Shown: in pieces, positions 7,569 to 59,099 of the stretch | How the letters are laid out: every line of letters begins with the position of its first letter | Numbering within the stretch: position 1 is the stretch's first letter | Source: Candidatus Nomurabacteria bacterium | Lineage (GTDB): Bacteria > Patescibacteriota > Minisyncoccia > Phycocordibacterales > UBA9973 | Direction: 5' to 3' | Assembly: GCA_943348755.1 (NCBI GenBank) | Contig: CALQYS010000004.1 | Coordinates: 1-59,099 of the forward strand | DNA length: 59,099 nucleotides | Notes under the pieces: model-generated | The model's database searches: none | The model's input: only the letters and a program-made list of their open reading frames with translations | Told to the model about the DNA's origin: nothing | Made by a program: the position numbers and the translations under genes

Positions 7569-8318
7569 TTATTTTTCCTTAATCAAAATATCTACTTCTT
7601 CGTCCAAGACCTTCTTTTCTGTCTTATTGACATAAACCTGTTGGGCTACAGCAAAAATATTACTCGTAATCCAATATAATGCAACCGCGCCGGAGATACT
7701 GTAAGCAATCCAAGTGATTAGAAAAGGGAAGAAATATTTCATCTGCATTTGCATATTTTTACCAAGACTTTCTGCAAAAGAGCCGGCGGAAGAATTATTG
7801 TTGGCCGGTTTTGGCATAAAGTGGGCTTGTAAATATTGAGATACACCTGCCAAAATCGCTAGCGGTAAACTCTTAGCACCGAGATTTATTATTCCCAGAA
7901 AAATCATATTCGTCTTTGCTGGTATATGAATAAAAGAATAAAGTAGGCTTTTGTCAAAATTTATACCTTTTAAAAAAACATAGTATAGGGCAAAAATGAT
8001 GGGTATTTGAATTAAAACTAAAAGACACCCAGAAAAAGGATTAGTCTTGTGTTTTTTATAAAGTTCAAACGTCAGCTTGGCTTGTTCTTCTTTGCTTACC
8101 CCGCTTTTTTTAATTTTATCGAGTTCAGGGGCAAGCATCGTCATGGCTGCCTGGTTTTTAATTGATTTTTGAGAGAAAGGAAAAAGCAACAATTTAACCA
8201 AAATAGTGAGCAATATAACGGCGATACCTACATCCCCGCCAGGGATGACTGAAACTAAAAAAGCCAGTGCGTTAATTAATGGCTTGTATAAAAGGGCGTT
8301 CCAAATATTATGAATCAT
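7569..8318 (-). CDS. yidC: membrane protein insertase YidC
   Basis: Multi-TM protein with PFSGCLLVLIQIPIIFALY. Sits in the rnpA-yidD-yidC-jag gene order. Confidence 0.85.
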   Translation of the reverse strand: MIHNIWNALLYKPLINALAFLVSVIPGGDVGIAVILLTILVKLLLFPFSQKSIKNQAAMTMLAPELDKIKKSGVSKEEQAKLTFELYKKHKTNPFSGCLLVLIQIPIIFALYYVFLKGINFDKSLLYSFIHIPAKTNMIFLGIINLGAKSLPLAILAGVSQYLQAHFMPKPANNNSSAGSFAESLGKNMQMQMKYFFPFLITWIAYSISGAVALYWITSNIFAVAQQVYVNKTEKKVLDEEVDILIKEK

Positions 8319-9122: not shown

Positions 9123-10487
9123 ATGGAACCAATGAATCCGAAACAACTTTGGAAAAATTGTCTGGCCGAAATCGAGACGGGTATATCAAAGGCAAATTTT
9201 AGTACTTGGTTTAAAAATACATCTATTATAAAGGAGGATACGGGTATTATCTATATTGGTGTACCTAATGAATTCGTTCGTGACTGGCTTATAAATAAAT
9301 ATCATAAACTTATTACAAAAACTATTGCTGATGCATATGAAAATATGCGTGCGGTAGAGTACACCATCACTAAAACAGAGGATGCAGCCGAACCTGAGAG
9401 GGAAGAAACGCCTACAACTAACGCAACATACGTAAACAAGGAGCTGCCATTAAAAGATCTGTATATAAACCCTGAGGACAACCTAAATCCACGCTACCAT
9501 TTTAATTCTTTCATCGTCGGAGCTTTCAATGAACTTGCTTATGCAGCATCGCAAGCAATAATAGACAGCCCTGGGACCAAATACAACCCATTTTTTATCT
9601 ATGGGGGCACTGGACTTGGTAAGACTCATTTAATCCAGGCAGTGGGAAACACAATTAAAGATAGATACCCAAATAAAAAAGTTCACTACATGACTCTGGA
9701 GAAATTTGCTACTGATTTTATCAGCTCACTACAAAGCAACAAGGCCAACTCTTTTAAAGAAAAATACCGCAAGTATGATCTTTTAATCATAGATGATATA
9801 CAATTCATCGGAAAAATGGAAAAGATCCAGGAAGAGCTTTTCCACACTTTCAACACCTTTCATGAAAACAACAAACAGATTATTTTTTCTTCTGATAAAC
9901 ACCCTAACTATATTCCGGAGTTGGCAGATCGTTTAAAATCACGTTTTGCTGCCGGAATGATAGTGGACATATCTCAACCAGAATACGAGTCCCGACTCGC
10001 AATTTTAAAGGTGAAATTAAGAGAGCTTAATATTGACCTAGATCCAGAAATAGTCGAGTATATCGCTTCGGCCGTAGATGGCAACATAAGGGAGCTTGAA
10101 GGAAGTTTAAACATCATAGTTTGCCAATATCGTTTGAAAAATAAGCCTTTAACACTGGCCGAGGTTAAAAACCTACTCAAAAATAACATGCGACCAAAGA
10201 AGAACATGGCGATAAAAGATATTGTAAAGATAGTAAGTGAACATTATAAGTTAGAAGAGGCTTCAGTGTATGAAAAAACAAGGAAAAAGGAGATAGTGAG
10301 GGCAAGACAAGTCGTGATGTACCTGCTCCGAGAGGATTTCAATGTATCCTACCCACTGATTGGGCAAAAACTAGGTGGAAAAGATCATACAACAGTCATA
10401 CATTCATGTTTGAAGATTAAAAACGATCTGAAAAACGACCCACAACTTTTACAAGAATTAGAGCAAATAAGAATTATGTTCAAGTAA
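9123..10487 (+). CDS. dnaA: chromosomal replication initiator DnaA
   Basis: AAA+ Walker A GGTGLGKTHL, Walker B LLIIDDIQF, and the C-terminal DNA-binding region KDHTTVIHS. Confidence 0.95.
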   Translation: MEPMNPKQLWKNCLAEIETGISKANFSTWFKNTSIIKEDTGIIYIGVPNEFVRDWLINKYHKLITKTIADAYENMRAVEYTITKTEDAAEPEREETPTTNATYVNKELPLKDLYINPEDNLNPRYHFNSFIVGAFNELAYAASQAIIDSPGTKYNPFFIYGGTGLGKTHLIQAVGNTIKDRYPNKKVHYMTLEKFATDFISSLQSNKANSFKEKYRKYDLLIIDDIQFIGKMEKIQEELFHTFNTFHENNKQIIFSSDKHPNYIPELADRLKSRFAAGMIVDISQPEYESRLAILKVKLRELNIDLDPEIVEYIASAVDGNIRELEGSLNIIVCQYRLKNKPLTLAEVKNLLKNNMRPKKNMAIKDIVKIVSEHYKLEEASVYEKTRKKEIVRARQVVMYLLREDFNVSYPLIGQKLGGKDHTTVIHSCLKIKNDLKNDPQLLQELEQIRIMFK

Positions 10488-32145: not shown

Positions 32146-32218
32146 GCGCCCATAGCTCAGCTGGTAGAGCAGATCCCTTTTAAGGATAAGGTCGTTGGTT
32201 CGATTCCAACTGGGCGCA
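32146..32218 (+). tRNA. tRNA-Lys (anticodon UUU)
   Basis: Hand-folded cloverleaf: acceptor GCGCCCA/TGGGCGC, anticodon loop CTTTTAA, T-loop GGTTCGATTCC. No encoded CCA. Confidence 0.9.
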
Positions 32219-32231
32219 CAGAAAGAAAATA

Positions 32232-41560: not shown

Positions 41561-42322
41561 ATGAGCACTAACACACAGGCTGCGATGGTGGCGATCCTTC
41601 AAGGGGTTAACCTGAATGACTCGCGCATGGACACACAAACGCTTCAAGCAATTGTTGATGCGCAAAAGCAAGGTCGGCTCAAGGGCCCTTTAACGGACTG
41701 GTTCGCCACGCAACAGTGGAATCAGGGCAAGTTCTCTGCCCGCGCCAAGTTCGTCGTCAACACTGGTTCCAAAGCGAAAGTGAAGATCTCATGTCTGGGA
41801 GACAACTTCCAGGCATGGCATCTTAGTTCCGTCGAGGAGTATATCCCGACGGAAGAACTCACCTACTTCATCTTGGAAAACGCCATGGATGACAGTGAAA
41901 TCATCGCCAAGCTTGGCGGTGTCGCCAAGTCTATCACCTCGCTCGGCGAGATTTACCTCAGGATGGAGCATCAGCCGCACGGGCCGAAAAGCCCCGCCGG
42001 CGATATGCTCACTGATGGTTCCGCCAACATCTTCTACGTGCCTCAGGCCGTGGATAAGGTGGATGACAACCATTTCAGTTACGTCGGTTCCGACGGCCAG
42101 ACCACCAAGATCATCCACGAGGAGTTGAAAGACTCCCAATGCCTCTTCAAGGTCGGTGATCAGTGGTTCGTGCTCCGCGCGGTCCGCGTCTTCTGGCATG
42201 TCGACGGTTGGTACGTCCTTGCCTTCTCCGTTGAGTTTCCGTACGGTTGGTATGCCGGCTCTCGGGTGTTCTCTCGCAATTCACTCAAATCCTCAGTTCC
42301 TCAGGAAAAAGCTGTAAGCTGA
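41561..42322 (+). CDS. DGR target (variable) protein
   Basis: 253-aa ORF, visibly GC-richer than its neighbours. The C-terminal approx 38 codons form the VR. Confidence 0.8.
   Translation: MSTNTQAAMVAILQGVNLNDSRMDTQTLQAIVDAQKQGRLKGPLTDWFATQQWNQGKFSARAKFVVNTGSKAKVKISCLGDNFQAWHLSSVEEYIPTEELTYFILENAMDDSEIIAKLGGVAKSITSLGEIYLRMEHQPHGPKSPAGDMLTDGSANIFYVPQAVDKVDDNHFSYVGSDGQTTKIIHEELKDSQCLFKVGDQWFVLRAVRVFWHVDGWYVLAFSVEFPYGWYAGSRVFSRNSLKSSVPQEKAVS
42167..42279 (+). repeat. DGR variable region (VR)
   Basis: Aligns without gaps to 42657-42769. By my count all 20 mismatches fall where the template has A. Confidence 0.85.
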
Positions 42323-42385: not shown

Positions 42386-42656
42386 AAATTACTAATTTAG
42401 TATAATCTTTTCAAATCATGCATTACACGATGGTTACGGCTCTTGTGTCATGGTTTCAAGAAATTTTTTATGAGAGTTGTGTCGGACCCAGTGTTTTTTA
42501 TCTTACACAAGAGTATAAATATTTTCTTCAAAAAATAACAATAATTGGTGCATGAGACTGGTGGATTTTTAGGTCTTAAATAAAATACAGCACGATCTTT
42601 TATATTAATGTGTTCAGATCGGCAGTGGCACTGATGGTCTCATGTACGATAACGCT

Positions 42657-42769
42657 TTCGTGCTCCGCGCGGTCAACGTCAACTGGAATGACGACGGTTG
42701 GAACGTCAATGCCAACTCCGTTGAGAATCCGAACAGTTGGAATGCCGGCAATCAGGTGTTCTCTCGAAA
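42657..42769 (+). repeat. DGR template region (TR)
   Basis: Adenine-rich copy of the VR (many AAC/AAT codons in the VR frame), 490 bp downstream of the VR. Confidence 0.85.
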
Positions 42770-42785
42770 CTATTGTTTTTCTCCT

Positions 42786-55367: not shown

Positions 55368-55688
55368 TTAAATACTAATCAATACCAAAGCTATGACAGC
55401 CAAGACTAGTCCAATTCCGTTAGTAAGAGACAAAGGTTCTTTAAATATTACAAACCCCAAAAATGAACATCCTGCCACAGTAAAGATGGCATAAAAAGTA
55501 ATAGCCGTGGCTGATTCGATACCTTTTTTCATGGTATACATCCAAACAATTGTCGCTATATTTAATAAAATTATTCCAATTATTGCTGACCATATTGGGT
55601 GGTTTACCCTTTTTGCCCACCAGACAAAAAGCATATCTGCGACAACTGCGACTGCACAGGAAGAAATTAGAAGAAATTTATTCATCAA
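55368..55688 (-). CDS. small four-TM transporter-like protein (SMR/EamA-like)
   Basis: 106 aa with four hydrophobic helices. The canonical SMR glutamate is not evident. Confidence 0.4.
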   Translation of the reverse strand: MMNKFLLISSCAVAVVADMLFVWWAKRVNHPIWSAIIGIILLNIATIVWMYTMKKGIESATAITFYAIFTVAGCSFLGFVIFKEPLSLTNGIGLVLAVIALVLISI

Positions 55689-55704
55689 ACAATTATATCA
55701 AATT

Positions 55705-56006
55705 AAATTGCGGTATTCATTGTACAAAATTCGAACTTATTTTGAAAGCAATCCTGATGATACCGACTACTAGCGTTCCCCGCGCGCTACGCGCCTCTGT
55801 GCAAAGCACAGAGCTTTCCCAAAGGGAAAGTGCGGGAAACGCTAAATGCAAATGCGGACTCGGTTTTGCGAAGCAATTTTGCGGGAGGAGGATCCGCAAA
55901 ACCGAGACTAAAGTTTTTGAAATTCGGCGGGATTTGGGCTTCCGCCCCGCATTCCTCCCGCACCCTCCTGCGGGGCGAGGCTTTGCTTTTTTGGCGGGCG
56001 CGGGCT
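55705..56006 (+). repeat. left copy of a 302-bp GC-rich structured inverted repeat
   Basis: Reverse complement of 58491-58793. The outer approx 168 bp are identical by manual alignment. Confidence 0.85.
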
Positions 56007-56029
56007 TAAAAAGAAAAACTTATCTGAGT

Positions 56030-56605
56030 TTATTCAAGTACTTTTAGATTGTTCGAAAATGAATTAAACTCATTTAGCATTTCATCGAAAAGCTTTTTCT
56101 TTTTTACAAAACTCATTTTTTGTCTTTTGTTAAAAAGAGAATCGTCAGCTCCAAAATCTATTCGTGCAACACCATCCTCAAATTGAGTAAGTTGTAGTAT
56201 TGGATTTTTTCTTTTCTTATTAAATTTAGAAATTAAGGAGTGAATATATCTAACTTTCTTCTGATTATTTTCTCTCCATTTTTTATACTCTCGTGTTTCA
56301 CCGTTTTTTACAGAAGAAAAAATATAATCAATATATTCACGATTATCCATTTCTTTGATTTTCTTTTTACCAATTTTAGTCAGGTATGATTTAAGGAATT
56401 TATTTTCATTCAAAAATCTTAATTTTGGCTTTTTTGATAATTCAAAAACTATACAGGGCTCAATCAAACTTTCTTTATCAAGAATTCCGTCTGATATTTG
56501 TATAGTTAAACCGAAATCTTCTAAAAATAGACCAGCTGTTAAAAGACCAATATTTTTGACCTTAAATTTTCTCTCTAATTGTTTGATTTTTGAATTTATT
56601 TTCAT
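56030..56605 (-). CDS. hypothetical protein (191 aa, Lys-rich) inside the IR-bounded cassette
   Basis: ORF only. No motif recognised. Confidence 0.5.
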   Translation of the reverse strand: MKINSKIKQLERKFKVKNIGLLTAGLFLEDFGLTIQISDGILDKESLIEPCIVFELSKKPKLRFLNENKFLKSYLTKIGKKKIKEMDNREYIDYIFSSVKNGETREYKKWRENNQKKVRYIHSLISKFNKKRKNPILQLTQFEDGVARIDFGADDSLFNKRQKMSFVKKKKLFDEMLNEFNSFSNNLKVLE

Positions 56606-56654
56606 AATTATTAATTACTTTTCTTGATTTTTAAAATATAAAGATATTCACAAA

Positions 56655-58469
56655 TTATTCTGGCAATTTAACAATGCCATCTGTAGAAATAGTGGAGTAT
56701 GCTAAGGTTTTTTCAATACTCACCCCTTCATTTTTATAGACACTTCTATCAATAGAAATTATTGGAAGATCAGCAAACCCTTTAATGGCAGCATTTTCAT
56801 CACTATGTCCGTGTGTGATAATATTAATTCCTGAATCTTTTAAAAACTTTTTTAGATTATCTTTTTCTTCACTAGAAATAGAATTCGATTCAGAGAAATT
56901 TTCTCTCGAATACGAGGATGTAGAAATAAACTCATCTCGCAAAACATTAAAATAATTTTTTTCTTGATCAGTTAATTTATTTTCAGGATTATCATTTTCT
57001 AAGTATATACGTAAGACTTTTTGATAAAACGCATTTATCTTACCCACACCTTCTTTTATTGAAGAATCTTTAGAAAAATCTTTGATAATTCCCACCATTC
57101 GTGGAGTTAGATTTGTATGTGTATATAAACTATCATCATGAAGCGTAATTAATTTTTGATTAACAAAAGCATCTTTAAACAAAGCATGTTCTTGTTTATT
57201 GTTTATACTTTCCTTAATTACACTTCTATTTGCAATAATAGTACTCCCAATTTGGTTTTGATATTTTTTATCAAGAGTATCTATAAAAGTAAACAGGATT
57301 TTTTGCGCTTCTTCATAGTTGTTATTTTCAAGTAAAGTGCAAAATTTTTCTAAACCAATTTGCTTATCCAGCATATCTTGATAACCTCCTTCGTATGCTT
57401 CTATTACATTTGGAGGATAATCAGGGTTGTTTCTAATTCTATCTAAAGTAGCCTTCTTTTTTTGAACATTCTTTTGAAAATCTAACCCAAAGACTTCATC
57501 TTTATTTTTTTTAATGTTTTCGTATAACTCTCTTATACTTTCAAATGGTAAGAATTTTAGAAGCTCAAGATTTCCTGTATATCCAGACAATCTATACGCC
57601 ATGTCTTCTTCTACTGATTTACCTTGTTCTGTACTAAAACCACAAAGCACAGCATTGAACATATTTTCATGATTCCCTGAAATCCACTCTATGTTACCAC
57701 CTTGTATTTTTGCTTGGTTCTTTAATTCTTGAAGTTTTCCATACACGTCCATTCCTTCCGGTGATCGATCTCCTAAAATGTCTCCAATAAAAACAACACT
57801 TTCATTACCTCCCCTCCAAACAATATTTCCATTTTGGTCATTTGAAATAAGATTTTTATATTTTAGGTGCTCTATAAAACTTTTATAAGAACCATTCAGG
57901 TCTCCAATTGCAGTAATATTTGTAGATCGCTCCATAGTTGGTAATGTAATTTCTTTTTCTTTAATACTTTCGGCAGATGAAAAAATCTCGGGACGTTCTG
58001 GGGTTTCTATACTTTCTTCAGTTTTTGCGACCTTACTTTTAACATGTTCTTGTGCGTATGCTAGTCCGCGTGCTTTCCATGCTTTGAGCCTCTCATGTTC
58101 TTTTTCATTAACAGGAATTGCAAAGGTCCACATCTCTTCAAGAAGTTCGGGCTCATTTATTAGTGATGACCACTTTGAAGGAATCATCGGCATATCAGAA
58201 AGGTCAACAGGTTTCTCATTTTTAGGCAAACCTAAATTTCCACGGATTTCTTTAATCTTCTTTTCGTCTTCTACTTTTCTTTTTTCTCCGACTTGTTCTG
58301 CCAGTCTTTTCTCAACACTAGATTTGAATGATTCTGGCAAATCTTGGAAAATGGAATCTTTAGATTCTCCGCTTTTTATACGATTTACATATTCTTCAAT
58401 TTTTTGCTCTCCGCCAGTGAGAGGTTTGTTGTTATCTAAAGATTCCATAAAGTATTTATACTTTATCAT
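56655..58469 (-). CDS. metallophosphoesterase (PPP/ApaH-like) domain protein with long N-terminal and inserted regions
   Basis: IGDLNGS, FIGDILGDR, SGNHEN, and a late THGHS motif. Start moved to MIKYKYF because the upstream part of the ORF lies in the repeat. Confidence 0.65.
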   Translation of the reverse strand: MIKYKYFMESLDNNKPLTGGEQKIEEYVNRIKSGESKDSIFQDLPESFKSSVEKRLAEQVGEKRKVEDEKKIKEIRGNLGLPKNEKPVDLSDMPMIPSKWSSLINEPELLEEMWTFAIPVNEKEHERLKAWKARGLAYAQEHVKSKVAKTEESIETPERPEIFSSAESIKEKEITLPTMERSTNITAIGDLNGSYKSFIEHLKYKNLISNDQNGNIVWRGGNESVVFIGDILGDRSPEGMDVYGKLQELKNQAKIQGGNIEWISGNHENMFNAVLCGFSTEQGKSVEEDMAYRLSGYTGNLELLKFLPFESIRELYENIKKNKDEVFGLDFQKNVQKKKATLDRIRNNPDYPPNVIEAYEGGYQDMLDKQIGLEKFCTLLENNNYEEAQKILFTFIDTLDKKYQNQIGSTIIANRSVIKESINNKQEHALFKDAFVNQKLITLHDDSLYTHTNLTPRMVGIIKDFSKDSSIKEGVGKINAFYQKVLRIYLENDNPENKLTDQEKNYFNVLRDEFISTSSYSRENFSESNSISSEEKDNLKKFLKDSGINIITHGHSDENAAIKGFADLPIISIDRSVYKNEGVSIEKTLAYSTISTDGIVKLPE

Positions 58470-58490
58470 TTTTAGAGTATTTTTTCCAGT

Positions 58491-58793
58491 AGCCCGCGCC
58501 CGCCAAAAAAGCAAAGCCTCGCCCCGCATTCCTCCCGCACCCTCCTGCGGGGCGGAAGCCCAAATCCCGCCGAATTTCAAAAACATTAGTCTCGGTTTTG
58601 CGAATCCTCTCTCCCGCAAAACTGTTTCGCAAAACCGAGTCCGCATTTGCATTTAGCGTTTCCCGCACTTTCCCTTTGGGAAAGCTCTGTGCTTTGCACA
58701 GAGGCGCGTAGCGCGCGGGGAACGCTAGTAGTCGGTATCATCAGGATTGCTTTCAAAATAAGTTCGAATTTTGTACAATGAATACCGCAATTT
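58491..58793 (-). repeat. right copy of the 302-bp GC-rich structured inverted repeat
   Basis: See the left copy. It lies directly upstream of, and in the same orientation as, the two cassette genes. Confidence 0.85.
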
Positions 58794-58991
58794 TTCGAAA
58801 ATGGTTTCCGAACCAAAAATATGGTCGGCGCGAAGCGCCGTCTGTTCCGAATTCCCCCCGCCGAATCCAGAATCCAAAAGGGTTTTCCACGCTCCGCGTG
58901 GCTCTTCGTTTGCCAATGCAAATCAAAAAATGGTAATATTGAAGTGCACCAACATCATATAGACCCACAGAGCTATTTTTATTTTTGAGTA

Positions 58992-59064
58992 CCAAAATGG
59001 CTAACTGTGTTCAATGTCGCTCTTGGGTGATGTTGGTGCAACATGGTTAGCCATTTTGGTTTTT
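58992..59064 (+). terminator. long hairpin plus T-run with a competing upstream pairing (attenuator-like) at the window end
   Basis: CCAAAATGGCTAAC ... GTTAGCCATTTTGG followed by TTTTT. GTGCACCAACATCA (58944-58957) can instead pair with TGATGTTGGTGCA (59028-59040). Confidence 0.4.
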
Positions 59065-59099
59065 AAACTTATGAATCACACCAGAAAATTTTTCATATA

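Follow-up and report, generated by a model that had tools for sequence, protein, structure and literature searches.

What are the two long inverted repeats (IR) that bracket a two-gene cassette near the end of a contig of Candidatus Nomurabacteria bacterium? The stretch analysed here, positions 1 to 59,099 of contig CALQYS010000004.1 (hereafter, the window), carries at 55705-58793 a cassette enclosed by repeats of 302 bp, which had been proposed, from the letters of the DNA, to be either a large invertible or mobile foldback cassette or a pair of large structured RNAs regulating the enclosed genes. Our analysis points to another arrangement: the repeats are most likely duplicated boundary modules of a small mobile element that inserts beside tRNA genes, and 55705-58793 is probably its cargo module, the element being an integrative one of Patescibacteria that is mobilised by a large serine recombinase (LSR), the gene of which starts at 59072. 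The observations behind this interpretation are the anatomy of the repeat unit, its conservation, the match between the core of the unit and the ends of tRNA genes, the variability of the cargo and the covariation in the hairpins.

The repeats themselves proved to be as predicted. Repeat search and MAFFT alignment identify 55705-56006 as the reverse complement of 58491-58793; the outer 168 nt do not differ between the two arms, and the remainder contains 4 substitutions (at 55873, 55876, 55894 and 55912 in left-arm coordinates), a single indel (after 55887) and a difference in the hairpin CGCCCCGCA/TGCGGGGCG, whose 17-nt loop reads identically on the plus strand of both arms and is, accordingly, flipped relative to the repeat. 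There is no third copy of the repeat in the window. The two arms are:

55705-56006, minus strand (read outward): left arm IR_A', distal to the recombinase, with an attR-like junction with host DNA

58491-58793, plus strand (read outward): right arm IR_A, proximal to the recombinase

The interior between the arms is 2484 nt long, and an independent Logan unitig of it is 2544 nt long (2484 plus twice 30), as expected of a de Bruijn graph that breaks at a real repeat. The unitigs across the host/repeat junction and across the junction between the repeat and the adjacent module X (described below) have equal depths, 18.1 and 17.4, respectively. In a source-like run, the depth is ~18 in the flanks and ~24 in the interior, compared to 130-630 in the repeat and 230-670 in the 110 nt adjoining the right arm on its outer side. 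This high depth, together with the presence of the arm and X modules in sludge, wastewater, sediment, estuary and lake metagenomes, indicates that the GC-rich (guanine- and cytosine-rich) pieces belong to a widespread repeat family. The same architecture is also found in the 742-kb single-contig genome OZ246398.1, which, along with the unitig and the junction depths, rules out the assembly artefact that the original prediction had considered.

In a collection of species-representative genomes, a 25-base pattern from the four-way junction of the repeat (see below) identified the same unit in 40 loci (numbered L016, L020 and so on), nearly all in metagenome-assembled genomes (MAGs) of Patescibacteria (Paceibacteria, Nomurabacteria and relatives) and many at contig ends. 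Copies from different loci are 75-94% identical over 200-330 nt (BLAST), whereas the arms within a locus are 95-100% identical. The copies almost always form inverted pairs, their members oriented to each other as they are in the window and separated by 1.2-4.3 kb (including L016, L020, L023, L025, L043, L054, L057 and L066-L069, as well as pairs that extend across consecutive 8-kb blocks, L032+L027 and L053+L035), and in other genomes occur as pairs beside an LSR gene or at contig ends. The segment 58640-59099 of the window is ~90% identical to L056 and L057, in which the LSR gene is complete.

The recombinase is encoded outside the cassette. The original statement that no recombinase lies between the arms is true of the interior; an LSR gene, however, starts beyond the right arm, 279 bases past the repeat, and is cut by the window end. 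The features in this region are:

58785-58904, plus strand: module X (proximal arm of a second inverted repeat pair, IR_B), consisting of the core CCGCA and a ~115-nt trailer with hairpins GGCGCGAAGCGCC and CCACGCTCCGCGTGG

58910-58939, plus strand: proximal promoter of the LSR gene (TTGCCA, 18 nt, TG-n-TAATAT)

58945-59059, plus strand: interleaved leader stems, A 58945-58957 with A' 59028-59040 and B 58995-59008 with B' 59046-59059

59072-59099, plus strand: first 28 nt (codons 1-9) of the LSR gene (MNHTRKFFIY...), aligned with complete genes

The repeated material on the right thus extends past 58793 as the module X, which has a very high multi-copy depth. In each pair of the family, one arm is followed by X (~120-170 nt), a promoter, a leader with interleaved stems and the LSR open reading frame (ORF), which begins M..KKFFLYARKSTD..Q..SI..Q. 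The complete LSR genes (read in L048, L049, L056, L057 and L066-L069) encode proteins of 516-560 aa, among them ones of 534-549 aa, with Resolvase, Recombinase and Zn_ribbon_recom domains; the best PHROG is an integrase (phrog_95, 5e-75), and the match to DNA invertases is weaker and partial. The LSR family includes more than 7690 homologs at E <= 1e-20, many of them on contigs of 1.7-2.7 kb because assemblies break at the repeats. P0018, the candidate protein through which a recombinase contig of the window lineage was sought, is not on record.

The extended -10 boxes of the LSR promoter can be aligned with those of L027, L016, L040 and L049. The leader stems are interleaved in the order A-B-A'-B', compatible with a pseudoknot or alternative structures, and are located directly before the start codon; the interleaved arrangement is retained with a different sequence in L049-type loci (L049 548-617), which suggests translational control of the LSR. 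In two loci, a perfect 19-21-nt complement of the first LSR codons is present ~140 nt upstream (470-490/631-651 in L049 and 4265-4283/4421-4439 in L040) and could mask the site of translation initiation. In contigs from several runs, ~58904-58921 is followed directly by ~59069-59075 and 58911-59073 is skipped; other copies of the family therefore lack the ~160-nt leader or have it replaced.

The connection to tRNA genes emerges from the second repeat pair. In 9 loci (L040, L048, L049, L053, L057 and L066-L069), X is repeated in inverted form (X'; 80-171 nt, 82-100% identity) at the 3' end of the LSR gene, and in 7 of 7 loci the start of X' falls within the terminal 4-5 nt of a tRNA gene oriented convergently to the LSR gene. 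The flanking tRNAs are Ser(gct), Ser(tga), Leu(gag), Leu(caa) and Glu(ctc), and the core that closes IR_A varies with the tRNA: CCGCA or CCGCC for Ser, CACCA for Leu and TCAC for Glu. These cores are common to the tRNA/X', IR_A/X and IR_A'/host junctions, two of which are visible in the window, where the core is:

55705-55713, minus strand: core CCGCAATTT, the same at the right-arm junction

Within this core, CCGCA matches the 3' terminus of the tRNA-Ser gene next to which the element is found in its closest relatives. The same core closes the far arm IR_A' and is followed there by unrelated host DNA; in the window, the sequence after the core is X on the right and, on the left, the native promoter and the start of an SMR-like gene. 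Relatives of this SMR-like gene, identified in other metagenomes by a protein-guided scan, occur in loci that do not contain the element and that are homologous to the window only as far as 55700, 5 nt short of the arm; these relatives are 70-79% identical, with upstream DNA that varies by locus, and are too distant to define the exact empty site.

Two of the loci show additional features next to tRNA sequences. In L069 (1-10600), three LSR genes alternate in tandem with IR-bracketed cargo, and the array ends at tRNA-Ser(gct), with which a second tRNA, called Ser(act), is back-to-back. In L067 (3050-3135), a tRNA-Ser-like 3' fragment with a terminator hairpin is found ~45 nt outside the distal arm, facing the element; the orientation of this fragment is inverted compared to that expected from simple integration.

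Alignment of 30 copies in the outward direction reveals the anatomy of the unit, which across the family is about 200-430 nt long for IR_A. The outer ~45 nt contain a conserved sigma70-type outward promoter (TTGAAA, 17 nt, TG-n-TACAAT/TATAAT), and the homology among the copies ends ~7-10 nt past the -10 box. At the inner end, a terminator-like hairpin reads inward and precedes an inward promoter, such that the GC-rich hairpins are placed between the two diverging promoters of the unit. In the window, these elements are:

55719-55746, minus strand: outward promoter P_out' (TTCAAA, 16 nt, TACAAT), conserved in the 30 aligned copies

58752-58779, plus strand: outward promoter P_out (TTCAAA, 16 nt, TACAAT)

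55943-55992, plus strand: inward terminator-like hairpin (CGCCCCGCA, 17-nt loop, TGCGGGGCG, then GCGGGGCGAGGCTTTGC and T6)

~58505-58554, minus strand: mirror terminator-like hairpin, with the loop flipped between the arms

58460-58488, minus strand: predicted inward cargo promoter P_in (TGGAAA at 58488-58483, 17 nt, TG-n-TAAAGT at 58468-58460)

The predicted start of P_out coincides with the end of the repeat, and P_out' aims at the host SMR-like gene and further minus-strand genes (55688 down to 53948). P_in is located just inside the interior, immediately after the inward terminator; the arrangement with the terminator hairpin upstream of the inward promoter recurs in L031, L034, L040 and L053, and homologous inward promoters (TGGAAA-17-TGnTAATAT) were identified in L031, L040 and L053. 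For the right copy, originally described as lying just upstream of the cassette operon, a more accurate description is a terminator and, after it, an inward promoter that is separate from the repeat.

In several members of the family, the orphan Rfam motif LOOT (RF03000, 81-89 bits) is located just inside the inner end of the repeat unit, reading inward, at the following positions:

L031 1161-1282, minus strand

L034 3567-3693, minus strand

L040 4980-5101, plus strand

L053 5957-6082, plus strand

In L031, LOOT begins ~17 nt past the predicted start of the inward promoter, and the promoter and the spacing are alike in L040; from this position, LOOT would be the first "cargo" transcript in those elements. 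The window contains no LOOT motif.

The cargo of the window consists of two genes:

56655-58448, minus strand: calcineurin-like metallophosphoesterase, 597 aa (PF00149, E = 1.3e-7)

56030-56605, minus strand: 191-aa protein, not assigned to a family in family searches

The phosphoesterase contains the motifs GDLNG, GDILGDR and GNHE, and its start at 58448 is consistent with homologs of 597 aa. The 191-aa protein has just 20 relatives among 1.84 billion representative proteins. The interior has a GC content of 26-31%, compared to about 38% for the window, so that the host-like composition originally attributed to it was a misreading. Neither PADLOC defence annotation nor PHROGs phage annotation yielded a match for the window cargo, and no homologs of it were found in the 40 related loci (tblastn). 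Across the family, the genes between the arms differ from locus to locus and include proteins with an ART-PolyVal domain, a DpnII-type restriction-modification (R-M) system with AAA_13, a combination of helix-turn-helix (HTH) and Fic domains, and many unknowns. A common 202-aa cargo gene has opposite orientations in L025 and L057, and, by our reading of the gene maps, 6 loci have cargo that faces away from the LSR, compared to 2 with cargo that faces it.

The phosphoesterase is also found in other settings. In L071, a homolog that is 73% identical occurs alone, flanked by a 194-nt direct repeat (7707-7900 and 9949-10142) at the 5' end of a Flavodoxin_2 gene. The same unit is found on a contig of 2347 nt, L072, with 105-nt terminal overlaps (1-105 and 2243-2347), which imply a circle or a tandem repeat with a unit of 2242 nt; here, the gene seems to travel by a different route. 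In L074 and L075, the phosphoesterase is solitary, with no recombinase nearby.

The fold drawn for the repeat in the original prediction, with a four-way junction, a 12-14-bp hairpin and a GC hairpin, is present in its entirety in the predicted fold. Its first two parts are:

55772-55843 (mirror 58655-58726): four-way junction, three hairpins closed by an outer stem (predicted fold, covariation)

55859-55906 (mirror 58591-58639): 12-14-bp hairpin CTCGGTTTTGCG / CGCAAAACCGAG (repeat search, predicted fold, covariation)

Folding z-scores relative to shuffled sequences are -4.2 and -6.5 for the two strands. The RNAalifold consensus of 21 distinct copies comprises 40 pairs, of which 14 show compensatory changes; in the four-way junction, these affect the outer stem and the closing pair of one hairpin. 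Because of these compensatory changes, the hairpin structure is taken to be under selection. The structural constraint proposed earlier from the placement of the differences in loops is upheld by this covariation among homologs, whereas the five loop differences between the two arms are, on their own, weak evidence.

By minimum free energy (MFE), the inward-reading strand folds better in 18 of the 21 copies, and the three exceptions include the left arm of the window and L026, both with a flipped C-rich/G-rich loop; the counts of G-U and A-C changes are 3 and 6, and although MFE favours the inward strand, the copies are related and the effect tracks the G-rich loop. This loop (55952-55968 and 58529-58545; 17-19 nt, C-rich, TTCCTCCC...CCTCC) is flipped, among the aligned copies, only in the left arm of the window and in L026, so that a local inversion between the 9-bp stem arms recurs. 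In one orientation, the loop of the terminator hairpin displays an anti-Shine-Dalgarno-like CCUCC and, in the other, AGGAGG.

The repeat does not correspond to a known RNA family: a search of the whole window against Rfam 15 at the gathering score retrieved two tRNAs only, leaving the repeat unmatched, and a search of 55500-59099 at E <= 10 retrieved nothing relevant to it. A short hairpin pattern run against viral contigs gave only chance matches of 19 nt. In wastewater metatranscriptome assemblies, the word depth of the hairpin modules is in the hundreds to thousands, compared to 20-50 for the recombinase leader; these data carry no strand information, have a profile like that of DNA runs and are suggestive only.

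The family has the layout host DNA, IR_A', cargo, IR_A, X, LSR gene, X', tRNA gene. If P denotes IR_A read outward, P' denotes X, B the tRNA and B' the host DNA, the three junctions are B-core-P', P-core-P' and P-core-B', with the first and the third in direct orientation at the extremes and the second inverted between them. Taken as those of a tRNA-targeting integrative element, the tRNA/X' junction would be attL-like and the IR_A'/host junction of the left arm attR-like, both putative remnants of LSR-mediated integration at the 3' end of a tRNA gene, and the internal IR_A/X junction (the right arm and 58785-58904) would be an intact attP-like site in inverted orientation. Under this scheme, the 302-bp repeat represents the P arm only. 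In the simplest history, the free form would contain two inverted copies of the attP region flanking the LSR segment, such that the cargo and recombinase segments would be separated by inverted repeats of ~420-470 bp, with integration proceeding via one of the copies; both integration and excision would be driven by the LSR. In the window lineage, the LSR gene would be followed by X' and a tRNA gene, and the empty site would be the tRNA joined straight to ...ATTTAATTTGATATAATTG. The tandem array of three modules in L069 fits repeated integration at one target.

The arms probably serve the element in two ways. Through the inward terminator, they would act as insulators that shield the cargo from outside transcription, and through the outward promoters they would re-supply promoters to the LSR on one side and to the displaced host genes (55688 down to 53948) on the other. 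The original suggestion of a mobile cassette therefore holds in that the cassette is a variable cargo module of a recombinase-borne family; it is not of the foldback or insertion sequence (IS) type with terminal repeats of its own. Its arms are duplicates of the sequence flanking the recombination core beside the LSR gene.

Several observations weigh against this scenario. The window includes only 28 nt of the LSR gene and neither X' nor the tRNA. An intact internal attP in an integrated element is a departure from the textbook LSR arrangement. With two equivalent attP copies, both orientations of the LSR relative to the tRNA would be expected, but only one is seen, in 7 of 7 loci. Each arm contains ~230 nt of junction and hairpins, which far exceeds the needs of an LSR site, and the abundance of the hairpin modules in metatranscriptome contigs would also fit a role as RNA. 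The distal X copy of L056, beside the tRNA, is only ~85% like the proximal one, and for L057, L066 and L068 the neighbour of the distal copy is not a tRNA but a degenerate remnant resembling one. An empty-site unitig is absent from the runs of the source study, and neither an empty attB nor an excised form was found. Dyad symmetry around the core reaches 11-14 of 28 at best across 17 loci, which is no better than in shuffled sequences; a 52-bp quasi-palindrome considered as an attP signature was dropped on account of dyad scores equal to those of the shuffles.

An extension of the integrative-element reading, tentative and on the whole rather doubtful, is that the family constitutes a cassette platform specific to Patescibacteria, with a conserved LSR gene, a standing, intact attP-like dock and a promoter, beside a cargo slot between two long inverted arms that are nearly identical to each other and conserved in many species. 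Cargo could be swapped in either orientation via homologous recombination after natural DNA uptake or, by another route, through a free form with two inverted attP regions resembling the 2-micron plasmid. If correct, this would explain the presence of unrelated cargo beside ~90% identical recombinase regions (the window compared to L057), the occurrence of the arm modules at 10-30 times the abundance of any single genome in lake and wastewater metagenomes, and the location of the orphan LOOT motif.

An unlikely alternative is a programmed invertible segment of the Gin/G-segment or shufflon type, in which the LSR, or RecA working on the long identical arms, would flip the cargo and, separately, the LSR segment and so generate heterogeneity in the population. 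The inverted repeats are indeed located directly beside a serine recombinase gene, there are two adjacent IR-bracketed segments, the higher identity of the arms within than between loci implies ongoing exchange between arms, and the cargo occurs in both orientations relative to the LSR, including the reversal of the 202-aa gene between L025 and L057. To this extent, the original notion of an invertible cassette is plausible, but inversion would alter no connection between a promoter and a gene: both arms carry the same outward promoter, and the inward promoter moves with the cargo. Furthermore, the enzyme is an integrase-type LSR of 516-560 aa rather than an invertase of ~190 aa, the arms are ten times longer than invertase sites, the orientation of the LSR to the tRNA is fixed in all 7 loci, and no orientation isomers were seen in unitigs, which break at the repeat.

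That each repeat is a gene for a large structured non-coding RNA, or else a leader acting in cis, and that the two control the enclosed genes is, in our assessment, improbable. The strength of the fold compared to shuffled sequences, the compensatory changes at 14 of the 40 consensus pairs, the better folding of the inward strand in 18 of the 21 copies, ending in a terminator-like hairpin, and the very high word depth in wastewater metatranscriptomes are all compatible with such an RNA. However, there is no Rfam match even at E <= 10, no initiating promoter was found, both conserved end promoters facing away from the unit, and the cargo is unrelated between loci, which leaves no common gene to be regulated. 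The 3 G-U and 6 A-C changes do not single out a strand, and the depth profile of the RNA runs, which lack strand information, is like that of the DNA runs. The corresponding proposal in the original prediction is accordingly not supported.

It is highly improbable that the cassette is a non-autonomous transposon, either a pair of miniature inverted-repeat transposable elements (MITEs) or a mobile insertion cassette, with 302-bp terminal repeats and a transposase encoded elsewhere. Long terminal inverted repeats around cargo with no transposase inside, and a repeat that is multi-copy in metagenomes, would be expected of such an element; against it, there is no target-site duplication (the flanks are AAATT... 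on the left and TTCGAAAA on the right, and alignment of ...ATCAAATT/ and /TTCGAAAATGG revealed no direct repeat), the repeat is found beside an LSR gene wherever context is available rather than dispersed, the window contains two copies only, and the junction core is the 3' end of a tRNA. Interpretations as an integron, a casposon or a MITE were set aside given that there is no tyrosine integrase or Cas1 and no target duplication, and the copies are not dispersed. Finally, a chimeric or collapsed contig, which the position of the feature near the window end and the tendency of short-read assemblies to break at the repeat might suggest, is effectively refuted by the differences between the arms at defined positions, the junction unitigs of equal depth and the presence of the architecture in dozens of independent assemblies, including long single-contig genomes.

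Elsewhere in the window, two segments stand out. The ~220-nt segment 32220-32440 (54% GC), with hairpin-like palindromes, is located directly after tRNA-Lys (32146-32219) and before AT-rich DNA, and could be another tRNA-trailer module or an integration scar. An ORF at 41561-42322 has a GC content of 55-57% within a genome of 38% GC, and ~120 nt of its 3' end are repeated with ~75% identity at 42650-42770, 490 nt downstream; this is probably foreign DNA with a partial duplication.

The integrative element outlined above has implications beyond this contig. Patescibacteria have tiny genomes and few characterised mobile elements, and the LSR family is very common; considering cargo that comprises R-M, Fic, ADP-ribosyltransferase-like and unknown genes, the element family is a plausible main route of accessory-gene turnover in these bacteria. 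Given that the repeats break short-read assemblies, leaving many recombinase and cargo genes on contigs of ~2-3 kb, MAGs of Patescibacteria are expected to under-represent the cargo. The junction analysis provides candidate attP/attB pairs, with tRNA 3' ends, for many serine integrases, which is of interest for genome engineering, and the family supplies a genomic context for the orphan motif LOOT. A minority of tycheposons are tRNA-proximal islands that bear an LSR (bioRxiv 10.1101/2020.12.28.424599). In the literature, of which our coverage was incomplete, no description of a serine-recombinase IR element of Patescibacteria or of a link to LOOT was found.

Among known systems, the window family shares most with the integrative elements and prophages that encode LSRs, such as the phiC31, Bxb1 and A118-type integrases: a recombinase with Resolvase, Recombinase and zinc-ribbon domains, a short core common to the junctions, a recombinase gene that lies terminally in the element, beside the target gene, variable cargo and tandem accretion at the same target. 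The attP of these elements is ~50 bp long, with imperfect dyad symmetry about the crossover. Unlike them, the window family keeps an intact inverted attP-like site when integrated, consists of two IR-bracketed segments with arms of 80-430 nt, has its core at the position where transcription from a conserved outward promoter is predicted to start, and comprises sub-lineages that target the extreme 3' ends of different tRNAs.

The serine DNA invertases (Gin of the G segment of phage Mu, Hin, Cin and Pin) are proteins of ~190 aa with a C-terminal HTH that act at sites of 26-34 bp, and the inversion they drive swaps gene expression. The likeness of the window family to the Mu G segment, a 2.5-3-kb segment between inverted repeats with a serine recombinase gene just outside one of them, is superficial: the protein is of the integrase type and 516-560 aa long, the arms span 302 bp, and no change of expression is predicted. 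In the yeast 2-micron plasmid, FLP, a tyrosine recombinase, acts on the repeats themselves and flips the plasmid. The proposed free form of the window family would similarly have two unique segments and long inverted repeats containing the target, with one segment encoding the recombinase, but here the enzyme is an LSR, the free form is conjectural, and the element is found integrated.

The platform of integrons (intI, attI and Pc) also combines a conserved recombinase with a standing site and promoter next to variable cassettes, and the sites are likewise structured, with covariation rather than sequence identity; in contrast, the window family has a serine rather than a tyrosine enzyme, shows no evidence of cassette excision and holds a single cassette between a pair of long inverted arms, whereas integron cassettes form an array in which every cassette has one attC. 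The resemblances to the 2-micron plasmid and to integrons should thus be taken as analogies only. Finally, the arm modules are comparable to repetitive extragenic palindromic (REP) sequences and bacterial interspersed mosaic elements (BIME) in being GC-rich intergenic hairpin modules, multi-copy and mosaic, that are able to terminate or insulate transcription; unlike those, they are tied to one element family and its recombinase and are present in ~2-4 copies per genome rather than in hundreds.

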